Source: an uncultured Eubacteriales bacterium (lineage in GTDB: Bacteria > Bacillota > Clostridia > Oscillospirales > CAG-382). Taken from it: DNA of 64,000 nt. The stretch is from the NCBI GenBank assembly GCA_934444485.1, contig CAKSCN010000001.1, positions 12,355 through 76,354 on the forward strand, written 5' to 3'. Shown here piece after piece: positions 23,001 to 40,800 of the stretch (position 1 is the first letter of the stretch; each line of letters begins with the position of its first letter). A program made the position numbers and the translations under genes. Under the pieces are notes generated by a model that ran no database searches, had not been told where the DNA came from, and saw only the letters and a program-made list of their open reading frames with translations.

Positions 23001-26000
23001 AATTTTTGATCTGCGACCATTGCTGCATTGTGCCGTTGTAATAGAGATCCTTAACGGTCAGTTTTCTTGAATCGTATTGATATGTCAAGGGGAAAGAGGT
23101 CAACGTAGACGGAAGATAGAGAGTTTCAAGATACTCGCTTGTGTAAAGTTGCGTGAAAGCGTCATAGCCTACCGTTTCAACGCCCTCCTCAAGGCGAACG
23201 TTTTTCAAGGAATGGCACTCCTTGAATGCCACATCCCCGATAGATTTCACCCATGAGGGAATCGTGACGCTTGTCAATCCGGTCCACATAAATGTTTGAC
23301 CGTTAATTTTCGTAACGCCTTTCGGAATATTGATTGATTTGATGCCGGTACCCATGAATGCGGTGCCGCCGATTTCTGTCACACTCTCGGGCAATTCAAT
23401 ACTGCTTATACCGCTTCCGAAGAAAGTACTTCCTCCGATAGTTGTCAAATTCGGCGGCAAATTGACTTCCTTTAAGCTTAGACAGTCACGGAACGTCGAG
23501 TTTCCTATTTTTGTTAAATTATCCGGTAAAACAGCTTTTGTGAGAGATTTGCATTCATAAAAAGCCCCAGACTCATTCAACTGTAAAGAATGACATTCCG
23601 AAAGATCTGCCTCCGTAAGTCCAGAATACATAAATGCTTCAGATCCTATGTATTGGAGACTTTCGGGGAAACGGAAGTTCTCGAGCGACGGGGTCCAGAA
23701 AAATGCCCTCTTTCCTATTCTTTCAAGGTTGTTTGCACCTGACACTTCCGTAAGAAGTTTGCAGTCATTAAATGCGTGTTCCTCAATTACCGTAACACTG
23801 TCCGGAAGATTTACAGTTTTCAATGCAGGACAGTTAATAAACGCCTGCTCGGAAATATTCGTCATGACAGCTCCCTCCTCAAAGGAAACTGTTGTAAGCG
23901 AAGGATGAGCTGCGAGGACAGAGCCAAAGCTCGTTAATGTAGCCGGGACAACGTAATCCGTCACATCGGGAGAAAGCCAAATGAGCTGAGTTTTGTCCTT
24001 GTTGTAGAGTGCGCCGTTTTCAAATATAAACGACTCATTTTCGGGAGCCAACCGCACATTGCGAAGTGATGGACAGTTGCCGAATGCATTAAAACCTATT
24101 TCTGTTACGGAGGCGGGAATATTTATTTCTTCCAAAGATGTGCAGTCTCTGAACGCCTCTGCGCCTATTTCCTCAACCGTATCGGGAAGCGTAATGCTCT
24201 TGAGATTATAATTATCTCTAAAGGCTTCTCTGCCAATTACCGTAACCTTGCTTCCAAAGGTAATGCTTTCCAAATTTTCTCGATGCCAGAAAGCGACGTC
24301 ACTGATTACCGTCAGATTTTCAGGTAAAATTACATTTTTGGAAATTCTTCCGATTTGATTTGAAAGTGTGTAGCTGTGTCCCTCGATTTCTTCCGGAAGA
24401 GTAACGGTATCTTCATTGCCCACATAATCGGCAAACATATATGTTGTATTTCCTTTACTGTCAGTCTTCTTGAAGAATCGGAGTTTGTCCTCGGTAACAA
24501 ATGTGTCCCAATCTCCGTGATTACTCGGATTTCTGTAGTGACCGTTTCCGTCGGCATCTATCCACACATAGGAACGTCCCGTCCAATCGAGTGAGCTGTT
24601 GTTTTCGACGTAATCGGCATAGGGGAAACCTTCATTGCTTTTCAGTGTGGAGGGTATCTTCATGTAGTCAAGTGTATTATCTGAAAATACATCGCCAGCG
24701 ACGGTTTCAACGCCCTCTTCAAGAATTATTCTTTTAAGGTTGGTGCATTTATAGAAAGCCATTTTTCCGATGTTAGTGTTTTTCGCAGTGATGGTTACCG
24801 ACCTGAGAGGCAAGTAATCTCTTAAGAAATTTTCTCTGATTTCCGAATATGTCTCGGGGATGACAAGATCCGTCAGCAATTCTCCGTTAATATACACTTT
24901 TTCAGGCTTACTGGAAGAATATGACTGCGGTATTCCTATATAAGTAAACAATGCAGAGATATCGTCGAGATACAGTTCTTTTGACCGTTTACACAATTCG
25001 GAAGCTCCGCTTTCTATATTGCTGTGTAAATAAAGCTTGTCTACACTTCCGGCTCCGAGTATATCATTGAGTTCCGTAACTTTTTTCGGAATAACAAATG
25101 TACCAAGTTGGCAGTATCCAAAAGCATACTTTCCTATAGTTTCCACCGAGTCTGGCAGATTGACGGTTGTGAGATTTTTACAGTTGTACAGCATATATTC
25201 CGGAATTGAAGTGACCCCCTCCGCAAAGGTTACTGCTTTGAGGCTTGTGCATCCGGCGAGAGAATTTATATAGTTGCTCGAGGAAAGGTTCGCCTCTGTC
25301 AGCAGTTCGCCGCCTATATACAGGTTATATTCCTTAAAGTAACTGTGGTGATTTCCGTAGCTTGAAAGTTTCACCTTTTGCAGCCAATCTTCAAGCTTGC
25401 CGTCATAATAAATATCTGTTGTAATTTGCTTTTCGGAAAGATCGCTGAATTCAATGTTAAGCCCTACGATATTTTTTGAAAGATGCAGTTCTTTCAGATA
25501 CGGAAGTTTGCTTGAAAATGCGTATCTTTCGAGTTGTGTAATCTCGTCGGAAAGATAGAGCTTCCCCGAAACTCCACACGGAACGCCATGATCCGAACCT
25601 AAGAAAGCATGGTGCATTCTGGTACATATTTTACCATCCGGAGTCTTCAACAAGATTGCATTATCAAAGGAATATCTTGCGGGACAATCCATAAAGGCGT
25701 AGCTGTAAACAGTATCCACTGTATTCGGAAGATCGATGCTTTCAATGCTTTTGCACTGATAGAATGCGCCGGTGCGGACATTTGTTATATCTCCCGTTAT
25801 GCTCACACGTTTCAGGCTTTCGGGTATGTAGGTTGCATTTGCCGTATACCTTCCGGCACCGAACAGCCAGCCGAACCATGTGTAATCGGAGTCTTCAAAC
25901 GACGCTCCGATAAACGGAACGGAAATATCCTCAATCTCCGAGCATTCCGAGAAAACGCCGAGTCCGAGCTCTAAGGTTTTCGCATACTCATTCGGAATAA

Positions 26001-29000
26001 CGATTTTCTTCATCGTATTTCCCATGAATGCGTACTCGCCCAATTCAACTACGTTTTTGGGGAGAATAATTTGGTCGAAGTTGCATTTTGCAAACGCATA
26101 ATTGTAGATGCCGATGATATTGCTGTTTTCACCGAACGGCAGTTTACGCAGAGAGGAACAACCGTAGAAGGCGAAGTCCGAAATTTCGACAACGCTGTCG
26201 GGCAGCTCAATATTTGCAAGAGAAGTACATCCGTAGAACACACCCTCGTAAATGCCCTTTATACCGCTTTCTGCCGAAATATCCACTCTTGTCAGGTCTT
26301 TGCACATCGCAAAGGCGTAGTAGTCGAGCGAAATAAGGCTGTCGGGAAGGCTTATGCTCTTAAGTGATGAATTATAGAAGCAGCGGTAACCGAAGGTCAA
26401 TATATTTGCATCCGGCGCAAAGTCCACTCTTGTCAGCTTGCTGTTTTCAAACGCACCGAAACCGAGAACCTCGACCTCTTTGGGGAGTGACATTGTTCCC
26501 GTTTTTCCGGCAGGAGCCGCTATCAGTTTTCTGCCGTCCTTGGAGCACAGCAAACCGTCAACCGCTTTGTATTTCGGATTTTCCTCCGACACTTCAAAAG
26601 CGTCAAGGTGCTGTAAGCCGACAAGAGAATACTCTCCTATGTACGTAAGGTTTGCCGGAATATATACTTTCTCCAATGCCGTATTGTAGAATGCGTTTGA
26701 CATAAGCCGGAGGTCTTCTCCGCCGCCGAATGAAACCGAAGTAAGCTCCGTACAGTTGCGGAAAGCGCCATGACCTACCGATGTTATTGTGTCGGGCAAT
26801 TCTGCTGTAACAAGTTTTGTCTGATAGAATGTGTTATCGGGAATTTCCGAGAGGGGATATTCTCTCAGGTCAACGCTTACAAGACCGCTTTCCGAGAAAA
26901 CGCCCTGTCCCATTGCCGTTAAGCTTCCGGGGAGTTTTACCGTATTGAGATTTGCGCAGTTTGAAAACGCCTTCTGCTCAATTACGGAGAGCGAGGGAGT
27001 CGTGCCGAAGTTTACCTCTGAAATTGCACTTTCTGCGAATGCGTTTTTGCCTATGAAAGTAACCGAATCGGGTATAGTCACACTCTGCAGCGAGCTTGAA
27101 GCAAATGCGTATGCCTGAATATTGTTTACCGTATTCGGAATCACGATGCTTTCCACAGGTGTTCCTTCAAATGCGTGACCGCCGATAGACACGATGTCGC
27201 CGTCAAATCCCTGTTTTGAGAAATCAACAGCTGGTTCCGATCCTTTATAGGCGATAATCGATACTCCTCCGTCCGTCAGCTCCGCATATTTCCAGGAATC
27301 GTTTTCCTCAACAAATACGACGCCGACATAGTAACCTCTGACACCGAAATCCCAGTTTTCCTGAAGCTCTGCCGGGAGGGATGCCGCCTTAAAGTAGACG
27401 TCAATTGTATCAAAAGCGTTAAATGCGTGGCGGCCTATGAACGACACTTTTTCGGGCACGGCAATCGCCTTTAATTTTTTACATCCGTAGAAAGCATAAC
27501 GTCCTATTTCGGTAAGAGAATCGGGAAGTTGGATATCGTTGAGGCTTTCACAAAAACGGAAAGCGTAATTTCCGACAGCTTCTACCGAGGCATCACCGAA
27601 ATCGATGCTCTGCAGGCCGCTCAAGCCCTCGAATGCACACGCCTGTATTGTTTTCAGCGCACTGCCGTCTTCAAAAATAACCTTGTTCAGGTTGTCTGCA
27701 CCCTTAAACATATATGCCGCTATGCGGTCGAGCTTGCTGTCTGCGGCAAATGTTACCTGTATCAGCTTTTTGCATCCGACAAAAACGCCCTGTCCCATAG
27801 AGGTGATGCCGGACGGGATGCGCAGGTAACGGATACCGGTGTTCGCAAACACGCCCAAGCCGAGTCTCTTCACCGAGGAGTTATTTCCTATTGTAATTTC
27901 GGTCAGATTTTGGCAATCGGCAAAAGCCAGGCGCGACAACTGTTCCACAGAATCAGGTATGCTGATTTTATTCAACTTACCAACGCCGCAAAAAGCCCCT
28001 GTTTCTATCATCCTCAAGCCCTCGGGCAGAATGACATCCGTAAGGTTTGCCGTTCCTTTAAATGCGGACGCACCGACCGTAACAACGGTTTCCGGAACGG
28101 TAAATTGTTTCCGCTCGTGACCGGCAGGATAAGTCACAAGAGTCGTCATGTCTTTATTATACAAAACACCGTCCGCCGAAATGTATACTTCATTCAGCTC
28201 GTCAACGGAAATATCCGTCAGCTCTCGGCAATACGAGAAAGCACCGCTGCCGACTTTTTTTATGTTGGACGAAAGTTCAATGACCGTCAAGCCTGATAAC
28301 GAAAAGGCATCGTCTCCTATTGTTACAAGGCTCTGCGGAAGCTTTATCGACGAAAGTGAAGGAGTTGACGCAAAGGCGCTCTCGCCAATCATGCGCAAAT
28401 TGCTGTTATCTCGAAATTCGACGGTTGCAAGCGACGGCACTCCCCTGAACGCCGACTTCCCGATAACGGATACTTCGTTGGGAATTTCAATCTCGAGGAG
28501 GTTTGTGCTTTCAAATGCAGACTCACAGATTTCGGCAAGGCGGCTGCCGTCTTCAAACTCGATTTTTGTCAATCCGGAGCCGGAGAATGCATTTTCACCG
28601 ATGGAATACACTGTGGCAGGTATTCTGATTGAGGTCAGCGATGAGCAGTTTGTGAAAATTCCGTCAGGCGCTGATGTCATATTGTTGCCCCATTTTACCT
28701 CGGTAAGCTCTTCACAGTTTGAAAATGCCCTGAGGCCTACTCTGTTTACACTGTCGGGAAAAGACACCGAAGTGAGTGACGAGTAATTGAAAGCCGTATC
28801 ACCTATTACACTGACAGCGGACAAATCAACCTCGTCGATTTTCGCATATGCAAATGCCGACTCCCCGATGCTTTGCACGCCGGCGGGAATACTGTATATA
28901 TCTTTTGTCTGTGCTCCTGCGGGGTATGCAACCAATACCGTTGCTGTACCGTTAAGCAAAACGTTGTCGGTCGTACGGTAAAACGAGTTTCCGGACACCA

Positions 29001-31014
29001 CCTCAAAGCTGTTCAGAGAAATACAGCCGAAAAACGCCGAGCCGTTCAGCTTTTTTACGTTCTTTGTGACCTTAAAGCTGCTTATTGCACTGTTTCCAAA
29101 TGCATTGTTTCCGATGCTTTCAAGCAATGCATTGTCCGAGACAGAGACACTTTGCATACGTGAAGCGTTATAAAAGGCACGCTCGCCGACGGTTTTCAGA
29201 TTGTCCGGCAATGCAATTGACAAGAGATTAGAGCAATTTTCAAATGCCGATATACCGATTTTCTCCAGCCCGTCAGGAAGAGTAACCCGGCGAAGACGAG
29301 TCTGATTCATAAAGGCATTGTCGCCGACAGATGATACAATCTTTCCGTCAATCATTTCCGGAACCGTTATGTAGCGACGTTTTCCGGTATAACTGCGTAT
29401 CTCAATCGTTCCGTCATCAAGTTCAACATAAGTATAGGGAACGCCGTCTTCTTCGTTTACCCAATTTGCGTACAGAGTCAAATCCGACTTCCATGTATCT
29501 CTGTACCAATCCAGTTCCTCCGTGCAGTCGATATCGTAATACCAACCGTCAAACACGGCATAATTGCGTTCCGGAACGGGCAAGTTCTGCAGGGTATGTC
29601 CCTCGATAAATATCTGCTTCGTATTATCGAGCTCCGACGACAACATATCAAATGTGACGGTTCTTCTTGTTTCGCATATAAGCGCCTCAACATCCAAAGC
29701 ACCGTAGCCGTAATAGAAGTCTTCACCGAGGTCACCGAGATCCCTACAGGAAGCATAAAGCTGTTCTCTGAGTTCGGGTAATTCCGTGCGCAAATTTTTT
29801 GAAACGTAAAGTGCGGAAGCACCGGCTACGACCGGGCAAGCAAGTGAGGTTCCGCTTACCGTTTTATAACCGCCGCCGAGAGTTGTCGTGTAAACCGTTC
29901 CCGGAGCAACTATATCGGAATTATCTCCGTAATTTGAATAATCCGCAAGCTCCCAGCTGTTATTTTCCAGTGCGCCTACAGCAATACAGTTCTGATCTGC
30001 CGCCGGATAAAACAGTCTTGAAGTCGCATCGTTGCCTGCCGCCGCAATACAGAGAACGTCGCTATCTGCGGCAAGGCTTAAAGCCTCCTCAAATCCGCTG
30101 TCGGGACCGGGGCTTCCGAAAGACATATTTACAATTTTTGCATTCCGTTCAATGGCATAATAAATTGCGAAAATCAAGTCCGAGTTTTTGAATTTTCCCT
30201 TTCCCTCGTTTTCGCATTTAATAACCAACAGTTTCACGTCCGGTGCTATACCGACGATACCTTTTCCGTCCATGGACGCAGCAATAACACCGGCAACCTG
30301 TGTGCCGTGTCCGTTATCGTCCTCAATCAGCGACCAATCGTAGGATGATGAGTCCAAACCGGTATCCTTGACAATTCGGTCATAGGTCGCATTATAAGAG
30401 TATTCGCTGATCTTCCCTGCAAATTCCGGATGGTCGGTATCTATACCGGTATCGATAACCGCCACAGTAACGCCTTCTCCGCGTGTTTTGTTCCAGGAAT
30501 CGCCAAAATTCAGATAATCAAAATATGTTTGCTTATTGTAATCCGTATCCGAAACGGCATAGGAGTTTTTATGTACCGGTATTGTTTTTTCATCGGAGAG
30601 GGAAGATGCGGGTAAAGAATCAACCGAGTCTTCATCACTGTCGTTTTCCATAAGTAAAGCGTAATAATCCAATGAAAAGCTCGAAAGAAGAGATTTGTTC
30701 TCGGAATCCGAAAAAATGTCCTTGACAGTGATATTTTCGGGAAGAGAAAGAACGGAAAACGATCCGTCAAAGCTCGTCCTCAGCGAGGCGTTAAAGCGTT
30801 CTGCCAAACTTTTCGCACGTGAAACAGATACGTTCCTCAAAATCAAAGAGTTTTCGGAATAATTGCCGTGTTGCAATTCAAGCTCTTCAAGACGAGTTTC
30901 TCTTTGATGTTCCAAGCGAATGTCCCTGTAAAAGCAAAAAACACCGGTCAGAACAAGCAAAACCGCTGTCACTGCAAAAACACCGTTAAGTACTGATTTT
31001 TTCTTCATCTTCAT
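20032..31014 (-). CDS. giant membrane-anchored surface protein: subtilisin-like S8 peptidase, very long BspA-type LRR region, and C-terminal four-Cys repeats
   Basis: About 3,660 aa. N-terminal anchor KKSVLNGVFAVTAVLLVLTGVFCF. S8 catalytic triad contexts VAVIDTGID, HGTQVAG and SGTSLACP. Dozens of LRR_5-like repeats (IPxxVxxIGxxAFxxC). The C-terminus has four copies of (A/S)TC(T/S)xxGxxxxxCxxCG...GH. The start is either ATG 31014 or ATG 31008, after AAAGGAGA. Confidence 0.85.
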   Translation of the reverse strand: MKMKKKSVLNGVFAVTAVLLVLTGVFCFYRDIRLEHQRETRLEELELQHGNYSENSLILRNVSVSRAKSLAERFNASLRTSFDGSFSVLSLPENITVKDIFSDSENKSLLSSFSLDYYALLMENDSDEDSVDSLPASSLSDEKTIPVHKNSYAVSDTDYNKQTYFDYLNFGDSWNKTRGEGVTVAVIDTGIDTDHPEFAGKISEYSYNATYDRIVKDTGLDSSSYDWSLIEDDNGHGTQVAGVIAASMDGKGIVGIAPDVKLLVIKCENEGKGKFKNSDLIFAIYYAIERNAKIVNMSFGSPGPDSGFEEALSLAADSDVLCIAAAGNDATSRLFYPAADQNCIAVGALENNSWELADYSNYGDNSDIVAPGTVYTTTLGGGYKTVSGTSLACPVVAGASALYVSKNLRTELPELREQLYASCRDLGDLGEDFYYGYGALDVEALICETRRTVTFDMLSSELDNTKQIFIEGHTLQNLPVPERNYAVFDGWYYDIDCTEELDWYRDTWKSDLTLYANWVNEEDGVPYTYVELDDGTIEIRSYTGKRRYITVPEMIDGKIVSSVGDNAFMNQTRLRRVTLPDGLEKIGISAFENCSNLLSIALPDNLKTVGERAFYNASRMQSVSVSDNALLESIGNNAFGNSAISSFKVTKNVKKLNGSAFFGCISLNSFEVVSGNSFYRTTDNVLLNGTATVLVAYPAGAQTKDIYSIPAGVQSIGESAFAYAKIDEVDLSAVSVIGDTAFNYSSLTSVSFPDSVNRVGLRAFSNCEELTEVKWGNNMTSAPDGIFTNCSSLTSIRIPATVYSIGENAFSGSGLTKIEFEDGSRLAEICESAFESTNLLEIEIPNEVSVIGKSAFRGVPSLATVEFRDNSNLRMIGESAFASTPSLSSIKLPQSLVTIGDDAFSLSGLTVIELSSNIKKVGSGAFSYCRELTDISVDELNEVYISADGVLYNKDMTTLVTYPAGHERKQFTVPETVVTVGASAFKGTANLTDVILPEGLRMIETGAFCGVGKLNKISIPDSVEQLSRLAFADCQNLTEITIGNNSSVKRLGLGVFANTGIRYLRIPSGITSMGQGVFVGCKKLIQVTFAADSKLDRIAAYMFKGADNLNKVIFEDGSALKTIQACAFEGLSGLQSIDFGDASVEAVGNYAFRFCESLNDIQLPDSLTEIGRYAFYGCKKLKAIAVPEKVSFIGRHAFNAFDTIDVYFKAASLPAELQENWDFGVRGYYVGVVFVEENDSWKYAELTDGGVSIIAYKGSEPAVDFSKQGFDGDIVSIGGHAFEGTPVESIVIPNTVNNIQAYAFASSSLQSVTIPDSVTFIGKNAFAESAISEVNFGTTPSLSVIEQKAFSNCANLNTVKLPGSLTAMGQGVFSESGLVSVDLREYPLSEIPDNTFYQTKLVTAELPDTITSVGHGAFRNCTELTSVSFGGGEDLRLMSNAFYNTALEKVYIPANLTYIGEYSLVGLQHLDAFEVSEENPKYKAVDGLLCSKDGRKLIAAPAGKTGTMSLPKEVEVLGFGAFENSKLTRVDFAPDANILTFGYRCFYNSSLKSISLPDSLISLDYYAFAMCKDLTRVDISAESGIKGIYEGVFYGCTSLANIELPDSVVEISDFAFYGCSSLRKLPFGENSNIIGIYNYAFAKCNFDQIILPKNVVELGEYAFMGNTMKKIVIPNEYAKTLELGLGVFSECSEIEDISVPFIGASFEDSDYTWFGWLFGAGRYTANATYIPESLKRVSITGDITNVRTGAFYQCKSIESIDLPNTVDTVYSYAFMDCPARYSFDNAILLKTPDGKICTRMHHAFLGSDHGVPCGVSGKLYLSDEITQLERYAFSSKLPYLKELHLSKNIVGLNIEFSDLSEKQITTDIYYDGKLEDWLQKVKLSSYGNHHSYFKEYNLYIGGELLTEANLSSSNYINSLAGCTSLKAVTFAEGVTSIPEYMLYNCKNLTTVNLPDSVETIGKYAFGYCQLGTFVIPKKVTELNDILGAGSVDKLYLHSNIESGASELCKRSKELYLDDISALFTYIGIPQSYSSSKPEKVYINGELLTDLVIPETYSEIRENFLRDYLPLRSVTITAKNTNIGKMAFYKCTNLKRIILEEGVETVAGDVFSDNTLDYMKIPSTLKSNEGFPYADYVENNSSLDWTGRSYVWIDADGNGHYRNPSNHGDWDTFVTEDKLRFFKKTDSKGNTTYMFADYVGNEDTVTLPEEIEGHSYTLSNQIGRISKNVILPENLTVISDVAFWHRENLESITFGSKVTVIGREAFRDNYNLKSITLPDTVEEIGAEAFRDCTSLEEINIPASVTEIGFNAFGNCPSLRNVRLAPENESFIFENGALYNKDKTQLIWLSPDVTDYVVPATLTSFGSVLAAHPSLTTVSFEEGAVMTNISEQAFINCPALKTVNLPDSVTVIEEHAFNDCKLLTEVSGANNLERIGKRAFFWTPSLENFRFPESLQYIGSEAFMYSGLTEADLSECHSLQLNESGAFYECKSLTKAVLPDNLTKIGNSTFRDCLSLKEVNLPPNLTTIGGSTFFGSGISSIELPESVTEIGGTAFMGTGIKSINIPKGVTKINGQTFMWTGLTSVTIPSWVKSIGDVAFKECHSLKNVRLEEGVETVGYDAFTQLYTSEYLETLYLPSTLTSFPLTYQYDSRKLTVKDLYYNGTMQQWSQIKNSNKSTYTEPMVVENMHFLGDDPTVGVDQTAIDQSAGLSGIKSIKEIKCSPTLVSIGANTFKDCTGIETFEISDSLESIDPTAFNGCGELKRIILSENNKNFVLLDGILYDKDVTSVILVTTEAVDVCIPNTVTDIRHLSGNSSIRKLSFEKGSGITELNGGLNGLSNLAVLTLPEKMTSIDVRELTGCENITHITVGENITSIKVPDGYTYDSLERIALIVNRSNVPITLEKGLAKNAFAVINADGTTDCKTGYESFKCVEKGDFLFANYGDGKHMLLSYLGSEDTVTLPENFDGEQYTFRKFSGVKNLIIPDGNIVIDEKAFYGGNFETVEIHGVSVGREAFSSCRSLRTAKLYDVGLVGYRAFAFSRALTEAYIRGKDTVVGAASFVYTGLEKLTLDGTIERIEGYDNVNTASDACIVYDTPYERNDGNYKNGLLIQDGWLITAKEGLRYAPPFEGGLAQTAYSKTYKTLKALADDNLNTFTDFDKYTNLEMLTLGSTLPVFGSWPETLKNIVLFKNYNVKGKYEFGRLTDGRIFVEREKKELDWDMRFPGWSNGNKVYYGGEWFFAEFRDFDGNILDWRAYTNSEVIRQPYMTNRTDGDFTYVFVGWDIDGDGYADFLPATAQADFCAQAVYEKHRLEDSEVVPATCTADGSKVSVCADCGETVVSIILPAFGHTRGEFVRNVPSTCSENGYDVYICETCAEEFRTNETKKLEHTFGEWSTVNEASCTATGTAERACLVCGYIEATNVPAKGHTYEVVSSKESTCTSAGEVVYSCSECGDETTETTEKLPHNYRKRTVPKHWLRVLIEKLLNMFFGYEGDNIYYYECSVCRHIQTADEHESSKQATVQGTGCLHELDDNWEQIPSSTQIQLIGRYCTKCGELVEAKVAESSFVSVTSFEAAIVNGKIVVTACVENVSENCNAYIAVYNSGNRIVKVFPITFTDGSAEIELDGISTETEKKVCLFIWDKTNLAPLCSSVSAVVDKNE

Positions 31015-31047
31015 TCTCCTTTGACCTTGTGACTTCTGTTGTGCCGA

Positions 31048-31074
31048 TACCACATAATTGACATTATGTTGTTT
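31048..31074 (-). promoter_or_regulatory. 27-bp leader element, copy A (upstream of the giant protease-LRR gene)
   Basis: taccacataattgacattatgttgttt is the exact reverse complement of 31246..31272. It lies 33-39 nt upstream of the start codon and contains the internal palindrome ACATAAT-GTCA-ATTATGT. Confidence 0.6.
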
Positions 31075-31245
31075 TAGCATCCTACATTATACACTGTTTC
31101 TTTTGTAAGTCAACATATATATACAAATTAACCCGATTTTTGTAATAATTAACACAAATATTGGATTTTGAATATAAAATTAAATTCAAATTTTGACTTT
31201 ACCGTTTTAATTTCAACACTTTTGCCGCTTGTTTTTACCTTATTT

Positions 31246-31272
31246 AAACAACATAATGTCAATTATGTGGTA
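31246..31272 (+). promoter_or_regulatory. 27-bp leader element, copy B (upstream of the amidase-dockerin gene)
   Basis: aaacaacataatgtcaattatgtggta lies 29 nt upstream of ATG 31302, just before the AGGGAGGAAG ribosome-binding site. Its position and orientation relative to its gene match those of copy A. Confidence 0.6.
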
Positions 31273-31301
31273 ATGCGGCAAAAATATTTTAGGGAGGAAG
31301 A

Positions 31302-34300
31302 ATGATGAAAATCAAACGAACCGTAACCGCTCTGTTCCTTGCGGCGACAATGGTGTTATCCACGCCGTTTGTTGCGGCAGAGGAAAAGCCTGAAGCGTTA
31401 CAGGACGACAGGCAGACCGAAGTAACCGAAACTGCGGAAGCTCCAACCGAAGCTTCACGTGTCGGCGAATCCGGCGAAACCGGCGGAACCGCAGCGGAAG
31501 AAACGGAAACAGCACAAGAGCCGGCGGAGGAAGAACAGAAACCGGCACAGCAGCCCGAGAACAGCGAAGCATCTGAAGCTGAAAAAAATTCGGACGAAGT
31601 ATCGCAAAATGATGAGCAGACCGAAGCGGATAAAACCGCAGAGGAAGAATCGAAGCCATCCGAGGACAAAGAGCCGAACGAAGCGACTGAAGTAGCAGAG
31701 GAAACGATAAAGACCGAAAACGACGAAGCTGAGAAAGTCGAAGAGAAAGCGGAAAATGCAGAAGCCAAGGCTGATAAACCCACTGAAAACGAATCAGCCG
31801 AAACCGACAAAGCCGAGATAGAAAGCGAAACCGATTTGAATGATGATGGCAGGGGAGAAGACGAAAAAATTGCTGAAAAGGTTTTTGATAGTGTTGAAAC
31901 AGTAATTTCAGATGACGAAGAAAACTGCCATACCATGACAAAGAAGTGGTTTTACGACAAGAAAAGTGTTAATTTGTTTGAGGATACAGATCCATCGGTT
32001 TTAAAAACAATTGAAGAATATTTTGATTTTAGATTGAAATCTGTATGTGAAACTCGTGGGAAAGAAACTGAGCTTATATCAGACGATGTTGCCGGGATAG
32101 AAGAAGCCCGCAGAAAAGGTCTTAATAAGTTTTGGAAAAAATTGAATATAAAAGTAACCGACGCCGATCATAATGTGCGAATCGATAAGGTTGAAGAGTC
32201 TGACGGCAATGTTACGGCATACGTTTACGAGTGGATATTCTATGATTATGAAGATCTCGATGCCGACGGTGTGACAATGGATGTCGCAGGATTCGGTGTT
32301 GAACATATTCTATGTCTTGAACTTGTCGACGGCGAATACATAGTCGCAGAAGATCTATACGACGAATCGGAAAGAAGCGGTGTTTGCACAACAGAAGAAA
32401 AAGAATACCCCGACGAGCCTGAGATGATTACATCTGATAAAGAAGGCGGTTATGATGACAGTGCCTCGCTGTTTACTTCGAATTACTATTATGACTACGA
32501 TGTGTCCGCAGCTATTGCCTATGCCGACAAATATGCAATAAACTACAATCCCTCATACTATAACTTCAACTCTATTGGCGGCGACTGTGCAAACTTTGTA
32601 TCTCAGTGTATTAATGCAGGTGGTATGCCGCAAGTGGTAGGTTCTGCATATGGCACAGATTGTTGGTATTATAAAACATCAAACAACCGAAGCGCTACTT
32701 GGACAGGAGCGCACCAGCTAAGAAATTGGATGGCTAACAAAAGAGGATTATTGATATCAAGCCCGAGTAATGACCAATTGTACGCCGGAAGCCCGTTTTT
32801 TACCAACAGCGGTGGACATGCATTGATTTGTGTGGGATACAATTCCGCAGGAAGTGCATTGTATTCTGCTCACAATAGTGACGCATACAGAGAAAAAGTA
32901 TATATTTCAAGTGTGAATTACACTGTTCAGCTTACTCCTTCAAACTATCTAAACAACAAGTACGGCGTAATCTATCACGCTAACGGCGGTACGGGCGAAC
33001 CTTCTTCACAAACAAAATATTATGGTCAGGATATAACCTTGAGTACCGTAAAACCTACTCGTACAGGGTATACGTTTAAGAAGTGGAATACCTCGTCAGA
33101 CGGCAGTGGTATCACATACGCACCCGGCGCAACATACAGCGAAAATGCTCCTCTGCATTTGTACGCTCAGTGGGAGGCAATTTCTTACACAATCACCTAC
33201 AACGCCAACGGCGGCACGGGCGCACCTTCGTCGCAGACAAAGATATATGATCAAAAAGTTACTTTAAGCAGTTTGAAGCCGACACGCACAGGATATGATT
33301 TTGTTTGTTGGAATACGAAATCAAACGGAAGCGGAACGAACTGGTATCCGGGTGATACTTATGGTTACTATGAGGGCAATCTGTACTTGTACGCTAAGTG
33401 GAAAGCGAAAACCTATACGATTACGTATAATGCAAATGGTGGTACGGGCGCACCTGCATCACAAACCAAGACGCATGGTAAGAGTATAAATTTGAGAAGT
33501 TCCACACCGACACGTGAAGGATACGACTTTGTTTGTTGGTATACAAATTCAAACGGTAGCGGCGTTCGTTGGGATCCTAATGAAAACTATAGCATCGATG
33601 AAGACTTGTATTTGTACGCTCAGTGGGAACCGAAAACCTATACAATTACATACAACGCAAACGGAGGAACAGGCGCACCATCGTCGCAGACAAAGACGTA
33701 TGATCAGACCATATACCTAAGCAATTCAGTGCCGGCACGCACAGGTTATGATTTTGTTTGCTGGAATAATATAATTTCTGATGGAGTTTGGGTGGAATGG
33801 TATCCCGGGGATAGCTTCAGTGCTAACTGCGATCTGAATTTGTATGCTCAGTGGGAAGCAAAAACATATAAAATTATATACGACACCAACGGAGGTACAG
33901 GCACACCTGCATCTCAGACAAAGACGTATGATCAGGACATATACCTAAGCAATTCGGTGCCGATACGCACGGGATATGAGTTTGTTCGTTGGAATACAAA
34001 AGCAGACGGAAACGGTGTGAACTGGTATCCGGGTGAGAGCTATAGCGCTAACGACGATTTGTACTTGTATGCGCAGTGGGACAAAGTATACACAATTACA
34101 TACGACGCCAACGGCGGCACCGGGGCACCGGAAGCGCAGGAAAAAATGCCGTGGTACTACCACGTACGCTTGAGAAGCACCGTCCCGACACGTACAGGAT
34201 ACATATTTATATGTTGGAATACAAAAGCGGACGGAAGCGGTGTACGTTGGGACCCCGACGAAGCCTATGACAAAGAAACAGATTTGCACTTGTACGCACA

Positions 34301-34490
34301 ATGGGGTGCTTTTGTTGACATAACAGGAGACGGCAAAACTGACCGTGCGGATGCAGAAATGGTACTGAAGCATGATTCCGGTCTTGTTACACTAACCGGC
34401 AGCCGATTCTCTGCGGCAGATGTAAACAGCGACGGTAAGGTTGATTTCAACGATGCCGTTCTCATGCTGAAATACTTGGAAGAGCATTGA
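31302..34490 (+). CDS. secreted putative peptidoglycan amidase (Amidase_6-like) with an acidic low-complexity N-region, about 7 Listeria-Bacteroides (Flg_new) repeats, and a C-terminal dockerin
   Basis: Signal peptide, then an E/K/T/A-rich region. Putative amidase core IGGDCANFVSQCINAGGMP...GHALICVGY. Repeats of YTITYNANGGTGAPSSQTKxY...PTRTGYxFxxWNT..DGSG..Y.PG..Y......LYAQW. Dockerin DITGDGKTDRADAEMVL...ADVNSDGKVDFNDAVLMLKYL. Confidence 0.8.
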   Translation: MMKIKRTVTALFLAATMVLSTPFVAAEEKPEALQDDRQTEVTETAEAPTEASRVGESGETGGTAAEETETAQEPAEEEQKPAQQPENSEASEAEKNSDEVSQNDEQTEADKTAEEESKPSEDKEPNEATEVAEETIKTENDEAEKVEEKAENAEAKADKPTENESAETDKAEIESETDLNDDGRGEDEKIAEKVFDSVETVISDDEENCHTMTKKWFYDKKSVNLFEDTDPSVLKTIEEYFDFRLKSVCETRGKETELISDDVAGIEEARRKGLNKFWKKLNIKVTDADHNVRIDKVEESDGNVTAYVYEWIFYDYEDLDADGVTMDVAGFGVEHILCLELVDGEYIVAEDLYDESERSGVCTTEEKEYPDEPEMITSDKEGGYDDSASLFTSNYYYDYDVSAAIAYADKYAINYNPSYYNFNSIGGDCANFVSQCINAGGMPQVVGSAYGTDCWYYKTSNNRSATWTGAHQLRNWMANKRGLLISSPSNDQLYAGSPFFTNSGGHALICVGYNSAGSALYSAHNSDAYREKVYISSVNYTVQLTPSNYLNNKYGVIYHANGGTGEPSSQTKYYGQDITLSTVKPTRTGYTFKKWNTSSDGSGITYAPGATYSENAPLHLYAQWEAISYTITYNANGGTGAPSSQTKIYDQKVTLSSLKPTRTGYDFVCWNTKSNGSGTNWYPGDTYGYYEGNLYLYAKWKAKTYTITYNANGGTGAPASQTKTHGKSINLRSSTPTREGYDFVCWYTNSNGSGVRWDPNENYSIDEDLYLYAQWEPKTYTITYNANGGTGAPSSQTKTYDQTIYLSNSVPARTGYDFVCWNNIISDGVWVEWYPGDSFSANCDLNLYAQWEAKTYKIIYDTNGGTGTPASQTKTYDQDIYLSNSVPIRTGYEFVRWNTKADGNGVNWYPGESYSANDDLYLYAQWDKVYTITYDANGGTGAPEAQEKMPWYYHVRLRSTVPTRTGYIFICWNTKADGSGVRWDPDEAYDKETDLHLYAQWGAFVDITGDGKTDRADAEMVLKHDSGLVTLTGSRFSAADVNSDGKVDFNDAVLMLKYLEEH

Positions 34491-34506
34491 TCATTAAAAG
34501 TGCAAA

Positions 34507-36234
34507 ATGCTTTCAAAGAGTAATTATAGCAAGCAACAGCTGATGTTGCTGTTTCCAAACTTGTTGTGTATGCTGTGTGCAGGCGGATTCAATTGGCAAT
34601 ACTGCATTATTCCGTTGATACTTATGGGAATATACCTCGCATTAAATTTCAAAAGAATAAACGGAACGCTCGGTATTGCTTCGCTGGCTTTACTTATTCT
34701 GCTAACGGCATCCGTGGTGTCAACAAAAGGTGATCCAAAGAGTGCGGTTTATGAAAGTGAAAAATTACTTTGCTTCATATCAGCTTTGCTCATTGGCAGT
34801 ACAACCGACAAAAAAAGCATATGCGGTATTTACGGTTTATGTATGACTTTTCTGGCAGCAATCGGTTTGTTTGCATACTGTTTTCACCTTAATTTTGCGG
34901 ACTTAATTCTTGACGACAGATATTTTTTGCGGTTACAATCCTCTGTTCAGTATGCAAACACAACTGCGTGTCTGCTGGCGTGCGGATACTTTTTCTCTAT
35001 TGATACCGTATTAAGAGTCAATACATCTCTCAAGAGATGCATATCGCAAATGATTCTTCTCTCATTGTACCTGACGTTTTCAAAAGCGTGCATTCCCATC
35101 TTTATTGCGGTATGCGTACTGTTAGTTCTGAAAAGGATTAATTGCAGGCTCATTATTGTCAGACAAAATATAATCGCAATGTTATTCTTCATACCTATTG
35201 CAATATGTGTTAAATACAACATATGCTTATTAGCCGGGATGCTTGCTATTGCCTGTATTCTGCTTGGCGGGTATGCGGATAATCATGAGTGGGATTTGTC
35301 TAAACTTTGGCTTGTATTTCTTGCATGCGCACTGATTGTTTCTTTGACAATTGCGATAAAATACCCTGTTGTTTTCGATTCTCTGCACCAAAGAATGGCG
35401 TTTATGAAAGACGCATGGGGTGCAACAAAAAAATATCCATGGGGATTCGGAAGCGGAAGCTGGGAGGTACTGCAATACAAATTTCAAACCGCCTCATACA
35501 GCGTCGGACTTATACATAATGGGTGGTTACAAATATTGTTCGACAACGGTGTAATATTTTTAGCTGTTATAACGACACTAACGGTATTCACGATGTATAC
35601 GCTAAGAAAAAGAAAAGACCACCTCATGTTTTCAGTGATTTCAATTATTTCTCTGCATTCCTTTGTGGATTTTGATTTTTCCTTTCCCATTGTACTAATG
35701 ATATTCGGAATGATTATCGGTTCAACATTAGATATCGACTCAGGGAAAGGGATTGTTCATATTGGCAGATTGTGTTCCTTTGTGTTTTTGGCAGCCCTTG
35801 CAATAACGTCAATCCATATGAGTCGGGAATACATATTGAGAAACTCATTAGAACGAAATTACATGCGAAATGATTTATGGGAAGCAGAGCAAAGAGGCAT
35901 TATACTTGAGAAACTGTGTCCATACGACGCCAAGCTTCAGATATCAATTGGCATGATGGAGTTCTTACAAAACGAAGACACAGCCGCATTGAGAGAACGA
36001 CTCCGCAAAGCAGTCAGCATATCGCCCAATGATCCAAGCGTTTACAAGTACTATATGAAGTACTCGCTTGATACGGATAATGTTTATGATATGTGCTGCC
36101 ATTACATAGATCTTTGTCCAATGCAGGAGGGAACAATGGAGTACATTAACGATTATACAAAGGAGGCATACAACAAAGGGATAATAACCGCAAAAGAACG
36201 AGAAGATATTTTAAAAAAACTCAATAGTCACTAA
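34507..36234 (+). CDS. O-antigen ligase-like (Wzy_C family) polytopic membrane protein with a helical-repeat C-terminal domain
   Basis: 575 aa with more than 10 hydrophobic segments. The loop WGFGSGSWEVLQYKFQTASYSVGLIHNGWLQILFDNGVIF resembles the O-antigen ligase/WaaL signature. The exact start is uncertain because the ribosome-binding site is weak. Confidence 0.65.
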   Translation: MLSKSNYSKQQLMLLFPNLLCMLCAGGFNWQYCIIPLILMGIYLALNFKRINGTLGIASLALLILLTASVVSTKGDPKSAVYESEKLLCFISALLIGSTTDKKSICGIYGLCMTFLAAIGLFAYCFHLNFADLILDDRYFLRLQSSVQYANTTACLLACGYFFSIDTVLRVNTSLKRCISQMILLSLYLTFSKACIPIFIAVCVLLVLKRINCRLIIVRQNIIAMLFFIPIAICVKYNICLLAGMLAIACILLGGYADNHEWDLSKLWLVFLACALIVSLTIAIKYPVVFDSLHQRMAFMKDAWGATKKYPWGFGSGSWEVLQYKFQTASYSVGLIHNGWLQILFDNGVIFLAVITTLTVFTMYTLRKRKDHLMFSVISIISLHSFVDFDFSFPIVLMIFGMIIGSTLDIDSGKGIVHIGRLCSFVFLAALAITSIHMSREYILRNSLERNYMRNDLWEAEQRGIILEKLCPYDAKLQISIGMMEFLQNEDTAALRERLRKAVSISPNDPSVYKYYMKYSLDTDNVYDMCCHYIDLCPMQEGTMEYINDYTKEAYNKGIITAKEREDILKKLNSH

Positions 36235-36238
36235 GGAG

Positions 36239-37774
36239 ATGATTTCTTTGAAAGATTACTGGAAGGTAATAAGCCTCGTACTTACCTTGTCGGTAATGAT
36301 GTCCTATGTTTGCATTTGTTTGGCAGGGACAGACACTGCGGAAAATATCACAAAAGCCGTTGGAGATGTAATTAACGGTCTTGATGATATTGGAAACGGA
36401 CCGACAGATAAAACAAAAACAGAATCCGTCGAAAACATTTCGGACGTTGAAGATGATTTGGCGGAAATCATGTCGGAAAACACCGTAAACAGTGTCAGGG
36501 GAGATGTATACAGCCTCAGGATTGCCGCCGAAAACGGAAAAGTCGGAGACACGATAACCGTCACTGTATCTATCCCGTCAAGAGCCAACGGTACAGGGGC
36601 AGTCGGCGGAAGCTTCAATCTTGTGTACGATAACGCAAAAATGAACCTTGTAGAAGCAACAACAGGAGAGCTTATTTCCGGCTGCGCATCGTCACTCAAC
36701 CCTAATTTTGCGCCAAATAAAATAAGGCTCTCATTTGCCGGGACAAGCGAACTATCGGCAAACGGCGGAGCCCTTGTGACGGCTAAATTTAAATATAAAG
36801 CCGCAGGCACGGCAATATTTTCGGCGGAAGATTTGCAGCTTTGCGGTTTTGATTTAAGTCAATTTTATTGTACCGACTCTTCAAAATCGGTTACGATAAC
36901 CTCGGCAAGCACAACCGTCTCCGTCACCGGAGTCTCGCTTAACAAATCTTCGGCAACGCTCAATGTCGGCGACACAACGACGCTCACCGCAACCGTTGCT
37001 CCTTCAAATGCAACAAACAAAAATGTTACATGGACATCGTCGAACACGGCTGTTGCAACCGTATCAAACGGTGTTGTCACCGCAAAGAAAGCCGGAACGG
37101 CGACGATTACCGTTAAAACCGCAGACGGCAATAAGACCGCAACGTGCAGCGTGACGGTGAAGGCGGCAACTGACAATTCTAAAGCCAGATTTACTTTTAG
37201 CGAAGCTACTGGGCGTCCTGGCAATCAGGTAAAGATTACTCTTAGTTTAAAATCTGCTGAAACAATCAATTCGGTTGCATTGTCAGAAATTAGTTTTGAC
37301 TCCAATGTACTGATATTCGACGGGTTCACGGATTATGACAATATTAGTGACTTGTCAATTCTTCCGCCGAGTTTTGATGCCGATAAAATGGCTATCATCT
37401 TCGCCTTGAAAAACGCAACAGCTTTTGACGGAAAAATATGTACACTAAATTTTAGAATTAAGGAAAATGCTACCGAAGGCGTGTATAATATCAACGCTAA
37501 TTCTACAGTTAAATTTGGTTCAAAGTTAGTTTCGTCGTCTGTTACCGCCGGTGAGATAACAGTTTGTATGCAAATTCTTGGTGATATAGACGGTAATGAA
37601 ACCGTAGATATTGATGATGCCGTGCTTTTATTCCAACATAGCATGCTTCCAGATCTTTACCCTGTCAAATATATCGGGAGCATGGACTTCAACAATGACG
37701 GCACAGTAGATATTGACGATGCTGTCCGCCTGTTCCAATACAGTATGCTTCCGGATTTGTACCCCTTGAATTGA
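36239..37774 (+). CDS. adaptor scaffoldin-like protein: cohesin, Big_2, cohesin, dockerin
   Basis: Cohesin-like module (YSLRIAAENGKVGDTITVTVSIPS...GGSFNLVYDNAKMNLVE). Big_2 module (VTGVSLNKSSATLNVGDTTTLTATVAPSNATNKNVTWTSSN). A second cohesin-like module. Dockerin with duplicated DIDGNETVDIDDAVLLFQHSMLPDLYP and DFNNDGTVDIDDAVRLFQYSMLPDLYP. The true start may be TTG 36248, which is better spaced from AAGGAG. Confidence 0.75.
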   Translation: MISLKDYWKVISLVLTLSVMMSYVCICLAGTDTAENITKAVGDVINGLDDIGNGPTDKTKTESVENISDVEDDLAEIMSENTVNSVRGDVYSLRIAAENGKVGDTITVTVSIPSRANGTGAVGGSFNLVYDNAKMNLVEATTGELISGCASSLNPNFAPNKIRLSFAGTSELSANGGALVTAKFKYKAAGTAIFSAEDLQLCGFDLSQFYCTDSSKSVTITSASTTVSVTGVSLNKSSATLNVGDTTTLTATVAPSNATNKNVTWTSSNTAVATVSNGVVTAKKAGTATITVKTADGNKTATCSVTVKAATDNSKARFTFSEATGRPGNQVKITLSLKSAETINSVALSEISFDSNVLIFDGFTDYDNISDLSILPPSFDADKMAIIFALKNATAFDGKICTLNFRIKENATEGVYNINANSTVKFGSKLVSSSVTAGEITVCMQILGDIDGNETVDIDDAVLLFQHSMLPDLYPVKYIGSMDFNNDGTVDIDDAVRLFQYSMLPDLYPLN

Positions 37775-37808
37775 ATTTGACTGATAAAAAATAGAGAGGA
37801 CTTTAAAC

Positions 37809-40800
37809 ATGAAAAGAATAATAACAATACTTGTGGCGTTGATGATGTGTTTTTCTTTTGTTATCGTGAATGCAAAAGAAGCTATCCCTGCTGAAGCTAA
37901 GTCGATTTTCACTTTGGAATCTTCCAAAGGCTACCTTGGTGAAACAGTTAAGATTAAGATTTCACTTAAATGCACGGAGGATATCAACTCCATAGCACTT
38001 TCAAGATTTAATTATGATGAAAATGTATTTGAGTTTGTTTCTTTTTCTGATTATGATCACATAAACGATATGACAATTCTTCCGCCAAGTTTCGACGAAG
38101 ATGTAATCGCCATTTCTTTAGCTTTGAAAGAAACAAAAAAGTTCAGTGGAACCATTTGTACAGCAACGTTTAAAATAAATTCAAATGCAGAACCCGGTAC
38201 ATATACAATTTCTGCAGAGCCGCTAACTAAAAAGAAGTCTGATATTGTGGATTCTTTCACAATTCCTGCTGAAATAGTAGTATCAGATAGGCCTAAGAAA
38301 GACTTCCCCTCGACGATAAAGTTTGAGGACAAGGAAGTTGAGTACAACGGCAAGGAACAGTCGATAACGGTATCCGGCAAGCTTCCTGCCGGAACAGAGG
38401 TTGAGTACAACAATACCAATAAGGCAACGGACGCCGGAGAATACAAGGCCGAAGCTATTCTCACAGCTCCCGGTTACAACGAGAAAAAGCTTGAAGCAAA
38501 CCTCACCATTCTTCCGAAAGCAATCACCGCAAGCGGAGTAACCGCCGAAAACAAGACCTATGACGGTACTGATGAAGCGAAGATAAGCGGCGGAAAAATC
38601 GAAGGAATAGAGGAGGGCGATGACGTTAACGCCACCTGTCCCGAAACAGGAAAATTCGCAAGTGCCAATGCGGGCAACGGTATTTCTGTTACTGCTTCCG
38701 ATATTGTTCTCAGCGGTGCTGACGCTCATAATTATAAAATTGCGAAGCAGCCGTCGCTGAAAGCAAACATCACTCCCGCCCCCATAACCGTAACCGCAGA
38801 CAACAAGAGCATGAGAAAGGGCGACAGCCTTCCCGAACTTACCTACAGTGTAACAGACGGTGAACTGTTCGACGATAACGCACTCTCCGGCAAGCTTGCA
38901 ACAAAGGCGAACGGTTCCAAGACAGGCGAATTTGACATAACAGTCGGCACACTCAAGGCTTCCGCAAACTACAAGATGACCTTTATCGGCGGAAAGCTTA
39001 CCGTCTCCGATAAAAAAGCACAGGATGTGGTTATCGCAAAGGTTGACAAAAAGACATACGGCGACGCTTCCTTCTCAATTGCTCCCGAATCCGACGGCAA
39101 CTCCGAGCTCGGCACATTTACATACAAAAGCAGCAACTCCGATATAGCGGAAATCGACAGCAACGGCAACGTTATAATAAAGGCGGCGGGAAATGTTTCC
39201 CTGACAGTAGAACGTGCCGGAAATGACAACATCGCAGATTTCAGCACTACCGTTAAGCTCAATGTTGCCAAGGCTAAGATTACGGTTACCGCAAATGCCG
39301 CTACAAAGCGTTTCGGCACTCAGGACCCCGAGCTTACCTATACGTACACAGGCGAGTTGGTCGGTGCGGACGAATTCACGGGTGCTCTTTCGAGAAAATC
39401 CGGCGAAAAGATAGGCAAGTACGCCATTACCATCGGCACACTCTCCCTCGGCAAAAACTACGACATCTCTTTTGTCGGTGCAACCTTTGAAATTACCGAC
39501 AAGACGCCGCAGAATATCACAGTTTCGTGCGACAGCGAAAAAACCTACGGCGACGACGATTTCAAGATTACCGTCACCCCCGACGCCGTTTCCGGACTTA
39601 CAGCATTCACTTATGAAAGCAGTAATACCAACGTTATTGAGGTCTCCGCAGACGGCACCGTTACCGTAAAAGCAGCCGGTGAAGCGACAATTACGGTAAA
39701 GCAAGCCGGGAACGATGAGTTTGCTCCTTTTGAAAAGACGATTGCAATAAAGGTCGGCAAGAAGTCTGTCGGCATTGTTTCTCTCGATTTGGATAACAAG
39801 ACCGTCATTTTCGATATTGATGCGGAGGGCATTTCACTTGACTTTGACAAGCTTGTCATCGAAAGAGTAAAGGATTCGGAGAAGGTCAATGTAACCGGAA
39901 TGGTTCTCACGGGCGAAAAGGCTGAGAACTACGCACTCACAACAGAGTCCTTTGAAACAACGGCGGATGCAGAAAATCTTGTGGATATCACCGTAAAGGC
40001 GTCCGGAGGTGATGTTGAAGGCGCAGGAACACACATAAAGAACAGCAAGGTAACTCTCACCGCAAAGCCTAACTCCGGTTACAGCTTTGACGGATACTAC
40101 GTAGGCACAAAGCTTGTATTTGCCAAGGCGGTATATGAATTTGATGCTGCCGAAGATATTGAACTCACCGCAAAATTTACAAGACACAGTACCGGAAGTT
40201 CTTCCTCCGAGGTCTTTCCCGTGAAGGGCGGTGGAAACAGCGGCACAAAGCAGGAGGTTGCCAAGATAACAGTAACCTTCGACACCAACGGCGGCAGTAC
40301 AATACAGACACAGACTATTTCGACCGGTTGCACCGCAATAAGACCCATGAACCCTGTAAAGGACGGATACATCTTTGACGGTTGGTATTCCGACAAAGAG
40401 CTTACCAAATCGTTTGCATTTGCGACAATTCTCAGAGAGAACACCACAATTTACGCAAAGTGGGCACCCGGAGCGGAAATGGGTAAGAGACAGTTCGTAC
40501 TCACCGTAGGAAGCATGAATGCGAACGTGTTCGGTGAATCAAAGGTAAATGATGTTGCTCCCATAGTCAAGAACAACCGCACCATGCTCCCGGCTCGTTT
40601 TGTTGCTGAAAACCTCGGTGCGACAGTTGAGTGGGACGCCGAAAACCGTGTTGTCACCGTAAAGAATGCAACTGTAACGATTAAGATAACAATCGGTTCG
40701 GATATTGCGACAGTGAACGGCGTTGAAGAGAAGCTTGATTCTCCGGCATTCATAGAGAACAGCCGTACATACACTCCTGTTCGCTTTATTGCCGAAAAGC

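Follow-up and report, generated by a model that had tools for sequence, protein, structure and literature searches.

The 64-kb window considered here, meaning the whole stretch of DNA that was analysed, comes from contig CAKSCN010000001.1 of an uncultured Eubacteriales bacterium and contains two large, divergent surface-protein units. On the minus side lies a giant gene for a secreted protease with leucine-rich repeats (LRRs), and on the plus side lies a five-gene operon that opens with an amidase-dockerin gene. The 5' leader of each unit contains one copy of the same 27-bp element, AAACAACATAATGTCAATTATGTGGTA, and it is this pair of elements that concerns us. An initial annotation had described them as an exact inverted pair, and both a copy scan and a repeat search confirm this: the 27-mer occurs exactly twice in the window (Table 1), as inverted arms of 27 nt that are 100% complementary and 171 nt apart. 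No further copy exists in the window at up to 3 mismatches, where the chance expectation is 0 (100 shuffles), nor does any additional copy of the 18-bp core, ACATAATGTCAATTATGT, at the same tolerance. The loose pattern CATAAT-N4-ATTATG with 2 mismatches gives matches near chance only. The descriptions of the flanking genes as a protease-LRR giant and an amidase-dockerin cluster hold in domain scans.

The palindrome ACATAAT-GTCA-ATTATGT that had been noticed within the element is real and slightly longer than stated, consisting of ACAACATAAT and ATTATGTGGT with 9 of 10 pairs around GTCA. The intervening spacer is AT-rich and close to 170 bp, as had been said. In both leaders the element has the same orientation with respect to its gene and sits just 5' of the ribosome-binding site (RBS). 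Its distance from the start codon, given earlier as 30 to 39 nt, was found to be 29 to 32 nt on the plus side and 33 to 39 nt on the minus side, RBSs included. The minus gene starts at 31014 or, more likely given its RBS AAAGGAGA, at 31008. Both outer flanks (31276-31284; 31036-31046) have a short CGGCA(A/C)AA similarity that continues 1 to 3 nt past the elements and is complementary to CUUUUGCCGC at the non-promoter end of the segment. Because 29 to 39 nt outside the elements leaves no room for a promoter, both units must depend on promoters inside the segment between them.

Table 1. Features of the window, numbered from its first nucleotide
Feature	Position	Strand	Description
Predicted left recombination core site	31048-31074	27-mer on -	Plus-strand reading: outer arm TACCACATAA 31048-31057; asymmetric centre TTGACA 31058-31063; inner arm TTATGTTGTTT 31064-31074
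Predicted right recombination core site	31246-31272	27-mer on +	Inner arm AAACAACATAA 31246-31256; centre TGTCAA 31257-31262; outer arm TTATGTGGTA 31263-31272
Predicted invertible segment	31075-31245		171 bp, GC content 0.24, no open reading frame
Predicted sigma-70-type promoter P1	31086-31113	-	-35 TTGACT 31113-31108; 16-nt spacer; -10 TATAAT 31091-31086
Weak candidate promoter P2	31120-31149	+	TATACA-18-AATAAT with TG, 9/12 matches; back to back with P1, facing the plus operon
Possible orientation-dependent terminator-like structure (speculative)	31219-31288	+	-18.8 kcal/mol, z -2.07
Target 1, giant gene	20032-31014	-	Secreted, 3660 aa; Peptidase_S8 and 18 BspA-type LRR_5 repeats; predicted P1 target in the sequenced orientation
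Target 2, five-gene operon	31302-44525	+	Co-directional genes, intergenic gaps 4-48 nt
Operon gene 1	31302-34490	+	Amidase_6-Flg_new-Dockerin_1
Operon gene 2	34507-36234	+	Unknown gene
Operon gene 3	36239-37774	+	Cohesin-Big_2-dockerin
Operon gene 4	37809-40865	+	YDG/MBG/Flg_new/Cu_amine_oxidN1
Operon gene 5	40914-44525	+	Phage-tail-lysozyme-Flg_new-dockerin
Type III restriction enzyme	44988-48086	-	ResIII and RE_endonuc; defence-like cluster
N6_N4 DNA methylase	48746-50731	-	Defence-like cluster
DUF4391 protein	51510-52100	-	Defence-like cluster
SNF2/helicase	52110-55784	-	1224 aa, with ASCH domain; defence-like cluster

What promoters does the segment offer? The best candidate, P1, matches the sigma-70 consensus at 11 of 12 positions and reads outward toward the giant gene, its -10 hexamer ending 12 nt from the left element. 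When the 171-bp segment was dinucleotide-shuffled 5000 times, 132 of the shuffles (2.6%) scored at least 11/12. On consensus evidence, then, P1 places within the segment the promoter that an invertible promoter should carry. Transcription is predicted to start near 31079, which would put the left element at about +5 to +31 of the giant-gene mRNA. In a consensus scan, nothing comparable to P1 faces the plus operon from inside the segment. The sole candidate is P2, whose score is at chance level, 1.3 such matches being expected per 700 bp in shuffles.

Structure at the RNA level is modest. The hairpin that the element can form is weak (9 bp, -6.1 kcal/mol), and both leaders fold no better than shuffled sequence (z -0.45 and -0.08). 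When the leaders were folded in their native and flipped forms, only a trivial hairpin of 7 to 9 bp appeared, without excess stability. Rfam gave nothing relevant over the whole window at gathering thresholds, and nothing relevant over 30900-31400 at E<=1, where the single match was mir-233 (E 0.14). One structure near the amidase gene is of some interest, if speculative. A 9-bp stem could form between CUUUUGCCGC, at the non-promoter end of the segment (31219-31228), and GCGGCAAAA in the outer flank (31276-31284); it would enclose the right element and be followed by UAUUUU just 5' of the amidase RBS. Its counterpart on the minus-gene side does not reach significance (z 0.15). With support on that one side, an OFF-state terminator like that of the cwpV switch of Clostridioides difficile (described below) may form here.

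The identity of the element becomes clearer from other genomes. Contigs representing one genome per species in GTDB (596 Gb) were scanned for the exact 18-bp core, which was found at 49 loci. In 16 of these it occurs as an inverted pair, 179 to 517 bp apart, and all 16 are in Clostridia, including Ruminococcus, Oscillospiraceae, Lachnospiraceae, Sellimonas, Faecalicatena, and Blautia. Two further loci have a partner site with 1 or 2 mismatches. For an 18-mer, chance alone would yield about 17 single hits in 596 Gb, a number in keeping with the lone copies scattered through Proteobacteria, Bacteroidota, and archaea. Among 2.9 million viral contigs only one matched the core, and a literature string search returned only a chance match, in synthetic DnaA-box promoters.

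What do the paired loci have in common? A conserved open reading frame (ORF) of about 280 aa adjoins the inverted pairs, and a hidden Markov model (HMM) built from 12 such ORFs detects a homologue in 18 loci. In 17 of the 18 its 3' end lies 0 to 65 nt from the proximal site or overlaps it. All 10 of the proteins tested have a Phage_integrase domain and an N-terminal SAM-like domain. They share 47 to 58% mutual identity and retain the invariant R..K..HxxR..H..Y residues, marking them as tyrosine recombinases. Their best models are XerA, XerD, and XerC, with scores of 97 to 148 bits against equivalog cut-offs of 220 to 335, and their best PDB matches are XerA/XerC-like structures. The family is very large, comprising at least 7992 clusters at E<=1e-60, annotated only as "tyrosine-type recombinase/integrase" or "XerD".

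The segments between the sites range from 150 to 490 bp, with a GC content of 0.21 to 0.44, and the window's 171 bp falls within this size range. In an all-versus-all blastn comparison, the interiors from 19 loci are unrelated except at orthologous loci, and that of the window has no match. Most of the segments nevertheless contain a good sigma-70-like promoter 4 to 45 nt from one site, reading outward through that site, as P1 does in the window. Genes controlled at other loci encode an LRR_5 lipoprotein, Flg_new and cohesin proteins, and a SpaA/VWA adhesin, as well as a histidine kinase, helicase-associated-domain proteins, and a GGDEF protein; several are of the same kinds as the two targets in the window. 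One contig of a metagenome-assembled genome (MAG) of a Clostridia member from horse faeces (L038, 1371-1759) has three core sites downstream of its recombinase gene, two in one direction and one in the other, a layout that would allow alternative nested inversions.

The sites themselves have a characteristic anatomy. The consensus of 38 core-aligned family sites is (T)ACNACATAA-TGTCAA-TTATGTNGT(A), 26 to 28 bp long, in which two arms of about 10 bp, inverted and palindromic, surround an asymmetric centre that corresponds to a crossover region of 6 to 8 bp. Both window elements agree with this consensus wherever the family is conserved (core ACATAA-N6-TTATGT, extended by ACN/NGT). The 27-mer spans exactly the family consensus, which explains why the identity between the two copies stops where it does. 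The elements have, in other words, the inverted arms and short asymmetric centre of a recombinase site, and they form an inverted pair. At one locus (P0160) the arms ACATAA and TTATGT are kept and the centre is TCAGCA instead in both sites, the behavior expected of protein-binding arms around a crossover region that needs only to match its partner. Since the centres of the window's two sites are inverted relative to each other, the predicted outcome of recombination is inversion, not deletion.

The arrangement is reminiscent of dif. The core is identical to Escherichia coli dif at 15 of 18 positions (GCATAATGTATATTATGT; dif sequence from PMC3025954) and shares the CATAA-N6-TTATG frame of dif sites. 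A chromosomal dif site was considered for the window and rejected, the window having two inverted copies 171 bp apart with symmetric arms.

The direction of the centre varies within the family. It points into the segment (TTGACA inward) in the window and in the Ruminococcus/Oscillospiraceae-type loci L002, L007, L014, L030, L035, and L049. It points outward in the Lachnospiraceae-type loci L016, L024, L026, L028, L031, L045, L056-L065, and L076, in which the proximal site often overlaps the recombinase stop codon. The opposite strand of the 6-bp centre reads TTGACA, a -35 consensus, and at L033, L047, L011, L023, and L002 this hexamer pairs with a -10-like hexamer 16 to 18 nt inside the segment, scoring up to 11/12. 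Promoters split across the recombination site are thus a possibility at several family loci; no -10 hexamer follows the central TTGACA in the window.

Do these segments invert? Inversion is seen directly at three independent family loci, where near-identical assemblies differ exactly by the orientation of the inter-site segment. Two MAG contigs, L002 and L018, are 99% identical in both flanks and carry the 280-bp segment in opposite orientations. Between these two contigs the stretches bordering the core have changed places, which puts the crossover inside it; the inversion breakpoints observed at the family loci fall within the 18 bp of the core. At a Blautia locus, ten assemblies with an identical recombinase (P0073) are split 1 versus 9 in the orientation of a 230-bp segment, which is 97 to 100% identical after reverse-complementing. 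The majority state includes a complete genome, and only in the minority state does a predicted promoter, TTGAGC-17-TATAAT with TG, point toward the gene downstream. The P0160 locus is split 9 versus 1.

Taken with the anatomy of the sites, these observations make it probable that the 27-bp repeats of the window are the two core recombination sites of an inverton served by an Xer/dif-type tyrosine recombinase. A recombinase dimer would bind the two arms (ACNACATAA and TTATGTNGT) of each site, a recombinase tetramer would synapse the two sites, and strand exchange within the TGTCAA centres would flip the 171-bp segment. In the sequenced orientation P1 would drive the S8-protease/LRR giant gene. 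Flipping the segment in silico brings TTGACT-16-TATAAT to within 12 nt of the right site, from where it would serve the amidase-dockerin-cohesin operon through an equivalent leader of about 60 nt. The two surface-protein units would then be expressed alternately, not together. As none was found in the 64-kb window, the recombinase would act in trans from elsewhere in the genome. The flipped junctions are predicted to be ATTATGTTGTTT joined to AAATAAGGTAAAAAC and GTAGGATGCTA joined to AAACAACATAATG; in the flipped state of 31000-31320, constructed in silico, they read GACATTATGTTGTTT joined to AAATAAGGTAAAAACAAGC and GTGTATAATGTAGGATGCTA joined to AAACAACATAATGTC, with GGTAATGCGGC farther on. 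For the window, what we infer is that the segment flips, that the genome encodes a cognate recombinase, where transcription begins, and that inversion switches the genes ON and OFF.

This reading keeps a good part of what the initial annotation had proposed. An element in both 5' leaders that is regulatory and links two divergent surface-protein units was judged correctly. Since both states keep the sites, the two mRNAs would begin with an identical sequence immediately 5' of their RBSs, the very pattern that the annotation had described. The suggestion that the two copies are bridged by a dimeric regulator also survives in part: they are probably joined by a protein bound to each palindrome in dimeric form. 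That protein, though, is most likely a promoter-inverting recombinase, since elsewhere the core adjoins Xer-like recombinases and flanks segments found in both orientations.

Why would this locus be a toggle rather than an ON/OFF switch? The second divergent target occupies the place where the family normally has its recombinase gene. Invertons are a known kind of phase variation; a two-way layout without a nearby recombinase is unusual. The fullest version of the proposal, which we put forward tentatively and at slightly less than an even chance, is that the locus is a true two-way toggle. An uncultured gut or rumen Clostridium would present either an S8-protease/BspA-LRR adhesin or cohesin-dockerin-borne cell-wall hydrolases, each to the exclusion of the other. 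The flip would be made in trans by an invertase from a very large clade (at least about 8000 clusters) of Xer-derived enzymes, uncharacterised by experiment, in which the dif-type site has become a portable promoter switch.

Several points weigh against inversion at this locus. The promoter and transcription start are consensus predictions only, and P2 does face the plus operon; if P2 is real, inversion might exchange a strong promoter and short leader for a weak promoter and long leader, rather than act as a strict ON/OFF switch. An exact look-up of the amidase protein found three contigs that carry the locus (the window, L050, and L051), and these assemblies are 100% identical and in one orientation. 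The locus was not found in JGI metagenome contigs, an exact-match scan with the right flank giving 0 hits. (A 22-mer site scan of the JGI metagenomes returned one unrelated short contig, L076, with an inverted pair of its own.) Finally, neither a family recombinase nor any other recombinase was detected in the 64-kb window by the family HMM, run against all ORFs of at least 90 aa, or by Pfam scans of 33 large ORFs. A recombinase is adjacent in 17 of the 18 recombinase-bearing family loci and, reportedly, in nearly all members of a published inverton group discussed below.

Could the switch be a fossil? In a genome that lacks a matching recombinase, the promoter would be fixed on the S8-LRR gene and the amidase operon would be silent or weakly driven by P2. 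The missing recombinase, where family switches normally have an adjacent one, and the common orientation of all three assemblies both speak for a locked inverton. Yet the two sites are still perfect copies of each other and depart from the consensus at none of its conserved positions, and five intact ORFs spanning 13 kb would not easily persist as an operon that has no promoter of its own. A sample of three assemblies is also too small to be telling, given that family loci show 9:1 splits, and trans-acting invertases of the XerC/XerD family are known in Clostridia (RecV; PMC5386303, PMC2784873). A locked state is unlikely, though a real alternative. The absence of a local recombinase, along with the 15 of 18 positions and the CATAA-N6-TTATG frame shared with dif, might instead suggest that one or more housekeeping Xer recombinases act on these dif-like sites in place of a dedicated invertase. 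We regard this as very improbable indeed: family loci nearly always have a paralogue of their own that scores far below the XerA/XerC/XerD cut-offs, both arms are symmetric and not asymmetric as in XerC/XerD sites, and the left arm of Firmicute dif (ACTTCCTAGAA) differs.

The remaining alternatives do without a switch. The initial annotation took the element for a shared operator, bound by a dimeric transcription factor, or for a 5' untranslated region hairpin that co-regulates both units without DNA rearrangement. Such a model draws on the near-palindromic site, on its position near the beginning of the predicted mRNA from the minus strand and immediately before each RBS, and on the 9-bp hairpin that can form. 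As described, however, that hairpin is weak, the leaders fold like shuffles, and no Rfam family matches. No other window gene has a copy upstream, the core elsewhere is tied to a recombinase gene and inverting segments and not to a regulator or a fixed start-codon position, and arms that are conserved while the centre changes are typical of recombination sites. Membership in either class, operator or cis-regulatory RNA, was accordingly rejected, and we consider co-regulation of this kind very improbable. Lastly, the unit as a whole, 225 bp of AT-rich DNA bounded by perfect 27-bp inverted repeats, could be mistaken for a miniature inverted-repeat transposable element or an insertion sequence remnant. 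This is hardly credible and was excluded: the flanks (ending in GCCGA and beginning with ATGCGG) contain no target-site duplication, conservation among loci does not extend to the interior, the 64 kb contain no second copy and the viral contigs just the one match, and family segments invert in place between fixed flanks.

How does the predicted inverton compare with known systems? Its closest relatives may already have been catalogued. "Inverton group 139", defined with PhaseFinderDC in the hCom2 gut community (Microbiome 2025; PMC11892184), consists of 33 invertons, 32 of them in Clostridia, from 17 strains. The inverted repeats (IRs) quoted are 14 to 26 bp long and the inner segments about 206 to 228 bp, and a tyrosine-type recombinase/integrase of "invertase group 35" lies close to almost every member. 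The authors described the IR motif as not published before and saw the invertons flip both in culture and in mice. The dif-like clostridial family described here is probably group 139, as judged by taxon, dimensions, and recombinase linkage rather than by motif comparison. The paper's account of the group gives no site anatomy, dif comparison, or mechanism. The window switch differs from the group as described there in lacking a recombinase close by and in having a divergent target on either side.

A precedent for action in trans is RecV of C. difficile, an invertase of the XerC/XerD family that operates on unlinked switches (PMC2784873, PMC5386303). Upstream of surface-structure genes, the cwpV and flgB flagellar switches have 21-bp IRs flanking 154 to 195 bp, and the flagellar switch was discovered by the kind of strain comparison used here (PMC2784873, PMC5386303). 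The RecV IR sequence, AAGTT(A/G)CTAT(A/T)TTACAAAAAA, is unrelated to that of the window, the cwpV switch has no promoter inside and works by terminator formation, and each C. difficile switch controls one unit instead of two divergent ones. In E. coli, fimS resembles our reading of the window in being an invertible promoter that is flipped by tyrosine recombinases (FimB and FimE, encoded adjacent to it) and turns a surface structure ON or OFF (PMC2784873). It differs in its 9-bp IRs, 314-bp segment, two recombinases, IHF and Lrp accessory proteins, and one-sided target.

For an either/or toggle, the closest precedents are Xer-like systems of Mycoplasma and Ureaplasma. In Xer1-vpma of M. agalactiae and in mba/UU376 and UU172/UU171 of Ureaplasma, site-specific inversions let one promoter express two or more surface proteins in alternation (PMC2268961, PMC3047005). 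There, genes or their 5' ends move to a fixed promoter, often producing chimeras, whereas in the window both genes would stay in place and a small promoter cassette would move between them; neither the organisms nor the sites are related to the window's. XerC/XerD-dif provides the model for the site, with 28 bp laid out as an arm, a 6-bp centre, and an arm, like those of the window family. It is a single terminus site for dimer resolution, in contrast to two inverted copies that would serve promoter inversion, and the symmetric arms of the family sites suggest a single recombinase. The family recombinases also score far below the Xer equivalog cut-offs.

A few features of the surrounding DNA remain to be described. 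The nearest homologue of the amidase (64% identity) occurs in another gene context, with no divergent partner. A defence-like cluster on the minus strand (44988-55784; Table 1) follows the surface-protein operon directly. Two more surface or secreted proteins are encoded in the vicinity. Convergent with the giant gene is a 484-aa LRR_5 protein (18112-19566). Farther away, a 1379-aa GH2 enzyme (10701-14840) with F5/8 type C domains and a C-terminal EF-hand/dockerin-like match adjoins an AraC regulator (9817-10707). The recombination core is absent upstream of both the LRR_5 and the GH2 gene in the core scan of the window.

Another repeat structure lies at 6940-7290, between the start of pheT (6922, minus strand) and the end of a YitT-family gene (7289). 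Here the 7-bp unit AATTGAC forms arrays of 4 to 5 copies at 7001-7038 and, inverted, at 7255-7286, giving arms of 31 nt that are 94% complementary and 216 nt apart, with TTGACA at each junction between units. A degenerate array (gaattgaaaattgagaatggagaatgggg) is found at 6947-6980, and Rfam has no match to the arrays of this region. They could be another invertible or protein-binding structure.

Overall, the interest of the locus lies in the two-unit toggle, in the missing local recombinase, and in dif-like sites that belong to an abundant, uncharacterised clade of Xer-like proteins. For annotation, the point that neither unit has a promoter of its own matters, and it bears on metagenomic expression data and on assembly breaks at such sites. 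The analysis yields a dif-like anatomy (an arm, 6 bp, and an arm) for what is apparently the main recombinase-linked inverton family of Clostridia, whose Xer-like recombinases are extremely abundant, yet annotated only as tyrosine recombinase or XerD. Inverted pairs of ACATAA-N6-TTATGT provide a search pattern for further switches, including orphans that methods based on recombinase proximity miss. If the proposed inversion is true, the switch would explain how an uncultured Clostridium bearing cohesins and dockerins varies its surface: one small flip would decide whether the 11-kb gene for a protease-adhesin or the 13-kb operon for hydrolases anchored at the surface is expressed.

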